A stretch of DNA of 64,000 nt from Escherichia coli (GCF_003334405.1 NZ_QOWM01000003.1); one strand, 5' to 3'. Counted from the stretch's first letter, positions 53,927 through 58,192 are shown. The notes: a model not told the origin generated them from the sequence alone. Numbers and translations: made by a program.

Positions 53927-54448
53927 ATGAAACGTTTTAGTCTGGCTATTCTGGCGCTGGTTGTTGCAACCGGCGCACAAGCTGCCAGTGAAAAAGTCGA
54001 GATGAACCTCGTCACGTCGCAAGGGGTAGGGCAGTCAATTGGTAGCGTCACCATTACTGAAACCGATAAAGGTCTGGAGTTTTCGCCCGATCTGAAAGCA
54101 TTACCCCCCGGTGAACATGGCTTCCATATTCATGCCAAAGGAAGCTGCCAGCCAGCCACCAAAGATGGCAAAGCCAGCGCCGCGGAATCCGCAGGCGGGC
54201 ATCTTGATCCACAAAATACCGGTAAACATGAAGGGCCAGAAGGTGCCGGGCATTTAGGCGATCTGCCTGCACTGGTCGTCAATAATGACGGCAAAGCTAC
54301 CGATGCCGTCATCGCGCCTCGTCTGAAATCACTGGATGAAATCAAAGACAAAGCGCTGATGGTCCACGTTGGCGGCGATAATATGTCCGATCAACCTAAA
54401 CCGCTGGGCGGTGGCGGTGAACGCTATGCCTGTGGTGTAATTAAGTAA
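53927..54448 (+). CDS. sodC: periplasmic Cu,Zn-superoxide dismutase
   Basis: ORF track 53876..54448; trimmed to MKRFSLAILALVVATGAQA signal-peptide start (173 aa); GFHIH motif. Confidence 0.93.
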   Translation: MKRFSLAILALVVATGAQAASEKVEMNLVTSQGVGQSIGSVTITETDKGLEFSPDLKALPPGEHGFHIHAKGSCQPATKDGKASAAESAGGHLDPQNTGKHEGPEGAGHLGDLPALVVNNDGKATDAVIAPRLKSLDEIKDKALMVHVGGDNMSDQPKPLGGGGERYACGVIK

Positions 54449-56461
54449 TTAAGAGGCCAGCGTACCTTGCGGTGGTGCTTGCTCAAGTTGCGAAAGCGAG
54501 CAGTACAGCCGCCAGACAATTGCCGCCAGCTCACGGGCGGCAGGTTGATGATGACGGGCAAGGCTGTCGCAAATCCGCTGTAATTCTTCAAGTGTGGCCG
54601 CCAGTGATTTTTGCTGAACGCCACGCTCACTCATCACTCCCCGCAACAGTGAAATACAGTTATCCCGTACTCGCGATAACGGATCGGAACGCGATTCCCA
54701 GTCGCGCAATTGCCAGACAACATGAGAACAGTTCAGCAGCACTACACCCCAGCGTAATAACCAACGGCGAGCCAGCGCATCCTGGCTGTTACTCAACTGA
54801 CTGACGTGATGATAAGTGAGCGATTCAAATTCGCTTTCACTCAGTGTTGGATGGCGGCTTAGCTGATCGACAAAATCCCGGCGCAGCGCGCGAATATGGC
54901 GGCGGCTTTTACGAGCATCCGATCCTGGACGCAGAATGGCGAACGCTAACCACGCCAACGCGACGCCAACGATTTTTGCCAGATTATCGTTAAGAAAATC
55001 AGCAAAATCATACACCGGGGGATTAGTGACAGCGATAAAAGAACCCATAAAAACAATCAGTTGCCCCCACAATGCGGCAAATTTTGGCATCTGCAATTTA
55101 AGAAGCTGCATTGTCGCCAGCAGTGGAAAGAGAAACAGTAAAAATTGCCACAGATCGCTAATCTGGACCATCAGACCAAATTTGACCACAAAGCTGAATA
55201 GCGAAAGTAACACCAGCGTGCGCATCAGAAGTGACAACGACTTAAACGGTGCTGCGACGGCGGAGTAGAGTACGCAGCTAATTGCTGCCAGCGTTAATGC
55301 ATTGGCACCGGCATCCCATTGCGAAGCAATACTCCATGCGCCAATCATCATCAACGTACAAAATGTACGCAGCCCGCTCCACATAGCTTCGGCGTTATCG
55401 GTATGACGAGCCAGGCCGGATGTCCGTGGGAGTCTGGTATGATCATCTACACCGCTTTGCAGACGATGTAATTCCTGACTACTTTGCAGATAAAGGCGGC
55501 AAAAATAACGTAGTCGCTGCCAGAAGGCGACGTGCCGATAGTCGGCGACGTTGGTCGGGCGTAGCGGGGCGATAATACGTGCGACGGTGTAAACATCTGT
55601 TTGCGAACTGGCGAGCGCCGTCAGCAACTGTTCGAGAATTTCTCGTGTGGCACCTGGCGGTGAGGGCCAGTTGAGCAACATACGTCGCAGGCTGGAGATG
55701 ACACTGGTCATACGTAATTGCTGGTGGAGCAGCGCATTAAGGCGCGCGTTTTGCTGGCGAAAACGATAGTGGCTCCAGAAAGCCTGGATACGCAGCAAAT
55801 TCATGGTCAGTATCTGCCCAATCACCCCTTCATGTGCTGCACGAATGGCATCGGTTGTTTCAGGCTGCCAGAGTAAACTGGCATGTTCCAGTAATCGGGC
55901 GTGCATGTTTTTCAATGCGGTTAAAAGGGCAGTAGCATCGGAACTGCTCGGCAGGATCATCATCATCATGCCGCCGCACAAAATACCGACTATTACCTCG
56001 CAAACGCGCGCCTGAGCGATATCCCACAGCTGGCTGGCCTCAGTAATATTAACCATCGGAAAGGCGATGATGGCAGCCGTGTAGCCCGCCAGTTGAAATG
56101 CATACGCGACGTTATTCGTGAAGTGCGCACAGGCCCAGGTACAAAAGCCAAGCCACGCCGACATGCTCAATAGAAAAAACCACGGCTCATTGAGCGTATG
56201 CCCGGCAAGAAGCAGTGCCGCAATGGCTCCGAGCAAACTGCCAGCGATGCGTCCGAGGCTTTTGCTGATAACACCGCCAACGGTGGGAAAGCTAACCACT
56301 GCAGCCGAGGTCATCGCCCAATAGGGTTCATCCAGATTTAAATAATAGGCAACCGTCAGCGCCAGACACATGGCAATGGTATTGCGTAACGCATAACGCC
56401 ATTGCGCCAGCGTGGCCCTGAACCAGGGCAAATTGCGCAAGGACCATGACGATGCGTTCAT
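54449..56461 (-). CDS. ydhK: FUSC-family (AaeB-like) inner-membrane efflux protein
   Basis: 670-aa two-domain hydrophobic ORF; stop codon abuts the sodC stop with zero gap. Confidence 0.85.
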
Positions 56462-57318
56462 TATTGACCTACGGCAATGCTACAGGTGGTGCCCGACACC
56501 AACGTGACATCGCCTGGGACTTTATCCAGCGCAAAGCGGACGGGAACGCGTTGGGCGAGTCGAACCCAGGGGACGTTAGGTTTAACATCCGGAATAAGGC
56601 TTGAGTCACTTTCAACGCTCTGATCATAAATCGCCCGACCGATACTGGAAACGTGACCCTGTAACGTTTTGTTATCACTATAGAGGGTAATTTGTGCTGG
56701 TGCACCTTCGCGGATATGGCGCAACTTGGTTTCTTCAAAATAACCAATGACGTAAAACGAGTGGCTGTCGACAAGGGCAAACAGCGGTTTCCCGGTATCA
56801 GCGTAATCGCCGATGCGGGTAGTAAGGTTAGTCACCCATCCACTCACCGGGGCGCGAATTTCCGTTTGCGCCAGTTGCCATTGTGCCTGTTTCAGCGTCG
56901 CCTGTGCGGCATCAACACTGGCCTGCATCGCTTTAACATTGAGGTTAGCGGTATCGAGTTCTTCGGCAGAAATAAAATTTTGTGAGAGATGACGACGACG
57001 ATTCGCTTCGTTATTGGCTTTTGCGAGGTCAGATTGCGCTTTCGCCAGCTGAGCCTGTGCGTTCAGCTCGGCGATCTGAAAGGGCGTTTTATCGATCGTG
57101 AGCAGAAGATCCCCCGCGTTAACCAGCTGGTTGTCTTTTATATTCAGCTCAACAATACGTCCCGACACCTGTGGGGTGATAGAAACCTGTTCTGCGCGTA
57201 TTTTCCCGTCGCGTGTCCACGGAGATTGCATGTAATAATTCCACAGCCACCATCCGGCAAGAACCGCAACTACCGCTACAATGATTGTTGAGAAATACTT
57301 AATTGTTTTAATTGACAT
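56461..57318 (-). CDS. ydhJ: membrane-fusion (HlyD/AaeA-like) protein
   Basis: ORF track 56461..57360; trimmed to MSIKTIKYF (285 aa); stop overlaps the ydhK start by 1 nt. Confidence 0.85.
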
Positions 57319-57320
57319 AG

Positions 57321-57557
57321 TTACCACGCAATCAGTATTGCCAGAGCAAGGCAAACGCAAATCGCAAACAGCGATAAATCCATTAACAAGGGATGCCAGA
57401 TGTCACCGGCGTAGATCCAGCCACGAAGCAGGCGGTGTACGACAAGCCAGATGACGAATCCAAACGCGAATGCTTTGAAAAACGGAGGAAAGTAGACGGA
57501 CGCACCGAACACCAGATCTTGTAAGGGCAATCCTGTTGCATTGAGCATAAACTTCAC
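57321..57557 (-). CDS. ydhI: small membrane protein (DUF1656, AaeX-like)
   Basis: 78-aa hydrophobic ORF; first gene of ydhIJK. Confidence 0.8.
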
Positions 57558-57729
57558 AAAGTAGATTCCTTTACGACCGAATATATTGCGTTAGATTAAT
57601 AAATATTCTTTAAGTGCGAAAAATTTACGCGCAATTTCTGAAAAATATGTCTGACGGTAACCAAATGCAGCAATACATTTGTTTTAGCAATACAATTGCT
57701 GCACACTATTCTAAAAGCCGCATAATATC

Positions 57730-57741
57730 TTAGCAAGCTAA
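57730..57741. promoter_or_regulatory. SlyA binding motif
   Basis: ttagcaagctaa matches the SlyA consensus TTAGCAAGCTAA exactly, in the slyA / ydhIJK divergent region. Confidence 0.75.
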
Positions 57742-57757
57742 TTATAAGGAGATGAAA

Positions 57758-58192
57758 TTGGAATCGCCACTAGGTTCTGATCTGGCACGGTTGGTGCGCA
57801 TATGGCGTGCTCTGATAGACCATCGCCTGAAACCGCTGGAGTTAACACAAACCCATTGGGTTACGTTACACAATATCCATCAGTTACCTCCAGACCAGTC
57901 GCAAATTCAACTGGCAAAAGCGATTGGCATCGAGCAGCCATCACTGGTCCGTACTCTGGACCAACTGGAAGAAAAAGGGTTAATTTCGCGTCAAACTTGT
58001 GCCAGCGATCGTCGGGCTAAACGTATTAAACTGACGGAAAAGGCAGAGCCGCTGATCAGCGAAATGGAAGCTGTTATTAACAAAACCCGCGCGGAAATAT
58101 TACATGGCATCTCCGCAGAGGAACTGGAGCAACTGATTACGCTCATCGCAAAACTTGAGCATAATATCATTGAGTTACAGGCCAAAGGGTGA
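57758..58192 (+). CDS. slyA: MarR-family transcriptional regulator SlyA
   Basis: ORF recognised as SlyA; TTG at 57758 has good AAGGAG spacing (144 aa), the alternative ATG at 57752 gives 146 aa. Confidence 0.9.

Follow-up and report, generated by a model that had tools for sequence, protein, structure and literature searches.

The stretch of DNA considered here (the window) comprises 64 kilobases (kb) of core Escherichia coli chromosome, and all coordinates refer to that whole stretch. It contains three genes, ydhI, ydhJ, and ydhK, that form an operon on the minus strand. On one side lies slyA, the divergently oriented gene for a regulator; on the other lies sodC, which meets ydhK tail to tail. 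This is very probably a core enterobacterial locus in which SlyA and sigma-E control an exporter of the AaeXAB type, and in which the last gene of the operon adjoins sodC without any spacer. RefSeq and MG1655 annotate an identical layout: ydhF, sodC, ydhK (FUSC), ydhJ (periplasmic adaptor), ydhI (DUF1656), slyA, and slyB. Some 4.5 kb around these features is matched in all 5426 of the 5426 complete E. coli genomes, with 95-100% identity. The sodC product scores 365 bits against the NCBIfam SodC equivalog (cut-off 165), and the slyA product scores 279 bits against the SlyA equivalog (cut-off 120). The features are collected in Table 1.

Table 1. Features of the slyA-ydhIJK-sodC region, in window coordinates (aa, amino acids; bp, base pairs; GC, guanine-cytosine)
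Feature	Position	Strand	Remarks
sodC	53927-54448	+	open reading frame; periplasmic Cu,Zn superoxide dismutase; stop TAA 54446-54448
Stem inside sodC	54285-54312	-	9-10 bp; perfect 9-bp inverted repeat ATGACGGCA ... TGCCGTCAT
Tandem 8-bp repeat over both stops	54438-54453		TAATTAAG, twice
Tail-to-tail junction	54446-54451		sodC TAA, then ydhK stop (TTA on +); 0-bp spacer
ydhK	54449-56461	-	FUSC-family inner-membrane transporter, 670 aa; stop is TTA on + at 54449-54451
C-rich, G-poor stretch antisense to ydhK 3' end	54580-54820	+	GC skew -0.2 to -0.32; holds Rho region
Rho-dependent region inside ydhK, sense strand	55054	-	published; MG1655 1723528 +; score 3.2, p 8.8e-6 (Adams 2021)
TAATG	56459-56463	-	ydhJ stop (56461-56463) and ydhK ATG (56459-56461) share one base
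ydhJ	56461-57318	-	membrane-anchored periplasmic adaptor (membrane-fusion protein), 285 aa; ATG at 57318
ydhI	57321-57557	-	DUF1656 small membrane protein, AaeX paralogue, 78 aa; GTG start at 57557
SlyA-like site II	57591-57602		TTAGATTAATAA; fits TTAN6TAA; 9/12 on ydhI-sense strand; centre 39 bp from ydhI start
Candidate sigma-E promoter of ydhI	57591-57617	-	GCACTT-N16-TCTAA; position predicted from motif only; -10 coincides with site II
SlyA-like site III	57684-57695	+	TTAGCAATACAA; 9/12 to consensus; motif scan
Putative sigma-70-like element toward ydhI	57708-57736	-	TTGCTA-N17-TAGAAT; consensus match; -35 hexamer inside box I
SlyA box I	57730-57741		TTAGCAAGCTAA; perfect consensus, 12/12; centre 22 bp upstream of slyA TTG start
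slyA	57758-58192	+	MarR-family regulator, 144 aa; TTG start at 57758
slyA/slyB hairpin	58203-58230		12 bp; region 58198-58235

A first-pass annotation, made from the sequence alone, had held that the operon resembles AaeXAB, and all three proteins bear this out. YdhJ shares 41% identity with AaeA (E 5e-68), YdhK 24% with AaeB (E 1e-27), and YdhI 33% with AaeX (E 1e-5). YdhK aligns over its full length with the Pfam FUSC family PF04632 (E 5.4e-140; residues 20-661 against positions 1-658 of the 660-position model), and YdhI matches Pfam DUF1656 (E 1.8e-14). YdhJ scores 135.2 bits against TIGR01730 (RND_mfp), above the cut-off of 94.9, and its top-scoring family is AaeA. The genes for the DUF1656 protein, the membrane-fusion protein, and the FUSC protein follow one another in the order found in AaeXAB-type systems, on a single strand and with tight junctions. 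None of the three products reaches the cut-off of the corresponding NCBIfam equivalog for AaeX, AaeA, or AaeB (NF008615, NF007850, NF007916); YdhI scores 21.4 bits where 82 are needed, YdhJ 243 of 400, and YdhK 120 of 870. This, in turn, means that ydhIJK is a paralogous system, not AaeXAB itself.

The junctions within the operon are of the kind expected for translational coupling, as had been claimed. The ydhI stop codon (57321-57323) is followed by two nucleotides (nt) and then by the ydhJ ATG, and ydhJ and ydhK meet in the predicted TAATG. An overlap of 1 or 4 nt between ydhJ and ydhK recurs in 59 of the 80 enterobacterial loci, from about 20 genera, that formed our comparison set. The GTG start of ydhI is kept, together with an AAAGGA Shine-Dalgarno sequence, across 21 genera. 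With its 2-nt gap followed by an overlap, the operon would be translated as a coupled unit. Fitness data show DUF1656 proteins to be cofit with pumps that combine a membrane-fusion protein and a FUSC protein. In the mechanism proposed here, YdhK would be the inner-membrane conduit of an envelope exporter, YdhJ its N-terminally anchored periplasmic adaptor, and YdhI a small accessory membrane subunit.

The AlphaFold model of YdhK (predicted local distance difference test, pLDDT, 93.9; predicted template modeling score, pTM, 0.91) suggests what such a conduit may look like. It holds two repeats, each with six transmembrane helices followed by a helical cytoplasmic domain. The two transmembrane sets in the AlphaFold2 model span residues 18-169 and 356-509, and the two helical domains span residues 175-336 and 515-657; residues 665-670 (pLDDT <50) form a tail that is disordered in the model. 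A total of 1,539 YdhK homologues were gathered at E<=1e-10, and 86 full-length ones were aligned with YdhK. The halves are homologous by profile-profile comparison (hhalign, 95.5% probability, E 1.4e-8); BLAST of YdhK for internal duplication found none. A sequence search of solved structures returned only a marginal match, to ALMT12 (E 0.4), so a comparison of folds was needed. The closest solved folds are those of channels, not pumps, and include the plant ALMT/QUAC organic-anion channels (7VOJ, 8HIW, 7W6K), whose identity to YdhK is 14-16%. No bacterial member of the FUSC family was among the solved-structure matches, either by sequence or by fold. We infer that two ALMT folds are joined covalently in YdhK as a pseudo-dimer, which would offer a path for organic anions. 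Aromatic carboxylate anions would probably leave the cytoplasm through it, by channel-like transport.

The region between ydhI and slyA was said to contain a perfect SlyA motif, and it does. The window contains a single exact copy of box I, against a chance expectation of 0.03; the looser pattern TTAN6TAA shows no enrichment there (18 found, 13 expected). Among 79 loci, from about 20 genera, 78 carry box I without a mismatch, always at a constant distance from slyA. The same sequence is tabulated for E. coli K-12, as the PslyA site "22 bp upstream of slyA," by Curran 2017 (PMC5797941), whose Table 3 also gives site II as a second, candidate site. That site is confined to Escherichia. The E. 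coli slyA-ydhI fragment is bound by SlyA in an electrophoretic mobility shift assay (EMSA; Curran 2017, PMC5797941).

Promoters for ydhI can be proposed from motifs in the same region. The candidate sigma-E promoter departs from the consensus GGAACTT-N16-TCNAA by one mismatch in the AAC core, and has not been kept in E. whittamii or E. albertii. Of the two hexamers of the putative sigma-70-like element, TTGCTA never varies, and 17 of 21 genera keep TAGAAT. This element belongs to the slyA-proximal ~95 bp of the intergenic region, which is conserved.

Control of ydhIJK by SlyA, as the first-pass annotation proposed, thus has the EMSA and the site table behind it in E. coli, and repression behind it in Salmonella. 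SlyA footprinting and in vitro transcription have been published for Salmonella. There, SlyA represses ydhI about 19-fold and slyA 5-fold in vitro, and salicylate relieves the repression (Will et al. 2019, PMC6401476). RNA-seq published in 2025 confirms that ydhIJK is repressed by SlyA (PMC12506092). Proteomics of Klebsiella kvrA mutants, which lack the SlyA orthologue KvrA, shows YdhJ raised 45- to >100-fold. The operon also belongs to the published sigma-E regulon and is inducible by sigma-E. Under the proposed mechanism, the divergently encoded SlyA would set ydhIJK transcription by binding the perfect operator before slyA, along with weaker sites closer to ydhI. Salicylate and similar aromatic carboxylates would release SlyA from the DNA, and envelope stress, acting through sigma-E, would induce the operon as well.

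At the other end of the operon, the stop codons of ydhK and sodC abut, just as had been noted, and leave no room for terminators. The MG1655 junction is identical (ydhK end 1724133, sodC end 1724134), and 5411 of the 5426 complete E. coli genomes match an 81-bp junction probe with >=80% coverage. Across the 66 enterobacterial loci of our set that contain sodC, the stop-to-stop gap ranges from -25 to +14 bp: -25 bp (2 loci), -22 (19), -11 (1), -8 (14), -4 (1), 0 (21), +2 (7), and +14 (1). These eight registers include true overlap of the coding regions in 37 loci, and a spacer big enough for a terminator in none of the 66. The other 14 of the 80 loci have no sodC beside ydhK. There, ydhK and ydhF are 28-150 bp apart, and in most of these loci a clear GC hairpin lies between them.

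The loci that lack sodC include those of E. albertii (locus L005 of the set, ~5010-5170), Kluyvera (L069, L073-L075, L079), and Trabulsiella (L038/L040), as well as L077. In E. albertii, 150 bp of the 3' end of sodC survive as a remnant. The window itself has 11 annotated convergent pairs, with gaps of -4 bp (purR/punR, whose coding regions overlap by 4 bp at ~39640-39643), 0 (ydhK/sodC), 11 (ydhS/ydhT), and, for the rest, 39-234 bp. The tandem 8-bp repeat that covers both stop codons in E. coli was considered and rejected; it is absent in Citrobacter and other genera with a 0-bp gap, and is therefore treated as a coincidence of codon choice.

Because there is no spacer, ydhK and sodC have no intergenic terminator. 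An intrinsic terminator might, of course, be hidden within the opposing coding sequence, but scans and folding show no convincing one on either strand. The consensus terminator scan of the plus strand gave nothing between the sodC stop and 55881, and the scan of the minus strand past ydhK gave 5-bp stems only. For the 241-nt plus-strand RNA past the end of sodC, folding is no better than that of shuffled sequence (z -0.8). The 241-nt minus-strand RNA after ydhK folds well against shuffled sequence (z -3.7) and contains the stem inside sodC listed in Table 1. This hairpin was rejected as a conserved terminator; it is specific to Escherichia, its pairs being disrupted in most of the other genera, and has a poor U-tract. 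The slyA/slyB pair, by contrast, has a 46-bp spacer whose hairpin behaves as a bidirectional intrinsic terminator, with Term-seq 3' ends on both strands (MG1655 1720347 and 1720384; Adams 2021). The same study assigns no Term-seq 3' ends to sodC or ydhK.

Published transcript data point instead to Rho. Supplementary file 2 of Adams 2021 (eLife) lists a Rho-dependent region on the MG1655 minus strand, at 1723937 (score 5.1, p 2.8e-5). By coordinate conversion, this lies at ~54645 in the window, 197 nt past the sodC stop and antisense to ydhK. The published Rho-dependent region on the sense strand of ydhK suggests premature termination of a poorly translated operon in LB (lysogeny broth). Further, ydhK-sodC is among the 165 convergent excludons seen in >=50% of 58 MG1655 transcriptomes (ExcludonFinder, Nucleic Acids Research 2025); purR/punR and ydhS/ydhT are also in that list. 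The convergent read-through that the first-pass annotation had deduced from the abutting stops is borne out by the excludome entry and by the Rho region past sodC. Each transcript would enter the opposing gene as antisense RNA, with Rho halting the sodC transcript about 200 nt in. A strong Rho region also lies antisense to slyA (MG1655 1720658 +, window ~57924, minus strand; score 9.1, p 2e-71). Read-through from slyB would head toward ydhIJK, on the same strand, and be stopped there by Rho.

The meaning of the spacerless junction can be argued in two directions. It might be a selected excludon, in which sigma-S-driven transcription of sodC (and of ydhF-sodC) and transcription of ydhIJK repress one another through polymerase collision or cleavage of the RNA duplex by RNase III. 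If so, periplasmic superoxide defence and aromatic-acid efflux would be expressed alternately. Overlapping transcription in at least half of the transcriptomes speaks for this, as do the different stress sigma factors to which sodC and ydhIJK respond, and the hairpin terminator that genera without sodC carry after ydhK instead. So does the gap itself, which never exceeds 14 bp in the sodC-containing loci and is truly negative in more than half of them; this could reflect selection for overlap, and counts against a neutral origin. The excludon is nevertheless very unlikely, in our judgment. With a 0-bp gap, any 3' untranslated region overlaps by definition, so that a place in the excludome list is almost automatic. 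The overlap register is not conserved, but shifts repeatedly between genera. Similar pairs are common, with 165 genome-wide and three in the window. Rho already limits sodC read-through, the hairpin in sodC at which ydhK transcripts could end lacks conservation beyond Escherichia, and reciprocal expression of ydhK and sodC has not been reported. It is likewise highly improbable that selection has kept the spacerless state across about 20 genera for the sake of antisense read-through that reciprocally couples the sigma-S/oxidative response (sodC) with the sigma-E/SlyA/aromatic-acid response (ydhIJK). We favor the view that the junction is a tolerated product of genome compaction and not a dedicated switch. 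From the shifting register, the overlap by definition, the abundance of similar pairs, and the disordered end of the YdhK model, we infer that it is neutral.

The control and the function of the operon must be weighed in the same way, since several observations tell against a simple repressor-exporter scheme in E. coli. The perfect box lies, by its centre, 178 bp from the ydhI start. The ydhI-proximal ~100 bp, half of the intergenic region, has diverged between genera, as Will et al. 2019 (PMC6401476) likewise remarked, and results from other species may therefore not transfer to E. coli. The published Salmonella site that acts on ydhI is a 75% match close to the -35 position relative to where transcription of ydhI begins; our scan centres it about 102 bp from ydhI, hence it is not the perfect box, and where Salmonella has this 9/12 site, E. 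coli has only a 6/12 match. The sole in vivo datum for K-12 is that SlyA overproduction in MG1655 raised ydhIJK 2.2-fold (PMC5797941), opposite in sign to the repression in Salmonella and Klebsiella. All of this would suit a SlyA that in E. coli activates or counter-silences ydhIJK, with the perfect box serving autoregulation of slyA only. That SlyA acts in this way is possible but, we think, rather unlikely. The effect is small and came from a strain with multicopy slyA, repression is direct in Salmonella, and the increase of YdhJ in Klebsiella is taken to be direct as well. In addition, site II of E. coli shares its position with the predicted -10 element for sigma-E, a repressive geometry. 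Divergence of the intergenic region may account for the opposite sign seen on overproduction.

As to function, it could be supposed that YdhIJK exports no aromatic acids, and serves instead in uptake, or as a gated anion channel without adaptor-mediated export across the outer membrane. The nearest solved folds of YdhK are, after all, channels, and the locus holds no gene for an outer-membrane factor. To our knowledge, YdhIJK has neither a known outer-membrane partner nor a transport assay. The phenotypes of DUF1656/membrane-fusion/FUSC systems in other bacteria could not be assigned to uptake or to efflux. The first-pass annotation called the substrate unknown, and a 2025 paper still says so of the physiological substrate (PMC12506092). 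That statement does not extend to phenotype, where fusaric acid is on record: 30 µg/ml fusaric acid slows the growth of a Salmonella ydhIJK mutant, and a slyA mutant, which is derepressed, grows better (Will et al. 2019, PMC6401476). These growth effects, the paralogy with AaeAB, an established exporter of 4-hydroxybenzoate, and the presence of a translationally coupled gene for a periplasmic adaptor together make a role other than export highly improbable.

Nearly all of this locus has, of course, been described before, and the experiments that the first-pass annotation proposed have largely been done already in Salmonella, Klebsiella, or MG1655. The value of the present analysis lies mainly in confirming what is, in textbook style, an efflux pump paired with a regulator of the MarR type. 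What is new is incremental: the near-invariance of box I, the narrow range of the ydhK/sodC gap, the hairpin in genera without sodC, and the ALMT-like doubling of YdhK. The one observation that is mildly new is that ydhK and sodC so persistently lack a spacer. The double-repeat model gives a concrete structural hypothesis for organic-anion transport by FUSC-family exporters.

Some features stand apart from these subjects. In the E. coli genome NZ_CP091756.1 the match to the region is split in two, and the annotation under it places an IS3-family transposase next to ydhK; this points to an insertion sequence within the operon, or adjoining it, in that strain. Elsewhere in the window, STnc550, RprA, rydB, HPnc0260, and two tRNA genes score above the Rfam gathering score, with matches at 40666-41056 (+), 8030-8137 (-), 13741-13801 (+), 31793-31955 (+), and 31920-32074 (-). 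HPnc0260 is an antisense RNA that overlaps one tRNA locus on the opposite strand; the matching RefSeq record has tRNA-Val at the corresponding positions.

Among the nearest known systems is AaeXAB (YhcRQP), the E. coli efflux system for aromatic carboxylic acids, which shares with ydhIJK its gene order, the homology of each gene, and a divergent regulator gene. The regulators differ: AaeR is of the LysR type and SlyA of the MarR type. For AaeAB, export of 4-hydroxybenzoate and of two further aromatic acids has been reported, whereas the sole known phenotype of ydhIJK is that with fusaric acid in Salmonella. With MarR-family repressors that face an efflux operon, the ancestral SlyA/MarR arrangement, SlyA-ydhIJK has in common a palindromic operator between regulator and pump genes, autoregulation, and release by salicylate. 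In contrast to that arrangement, SlyA doubles as a global counter-silencer of H-NS, its operator lies beside slyA and not beside ydhI, and its effect on ydhIJK in E. coli may be of either sign.

Among the convergent excludons of E. coli, the short intergenic distance of ydhK-sodC is typical of the class, whose mean is 95 nt against 0 bp here. Last, the ALMT channels are homodimers of single-repeat chains, whereas YdhK has two diverged repeats fused in one chain. Unlike them, YdhK works together with a periplasmic adaptor and a DUF1656 subunit.

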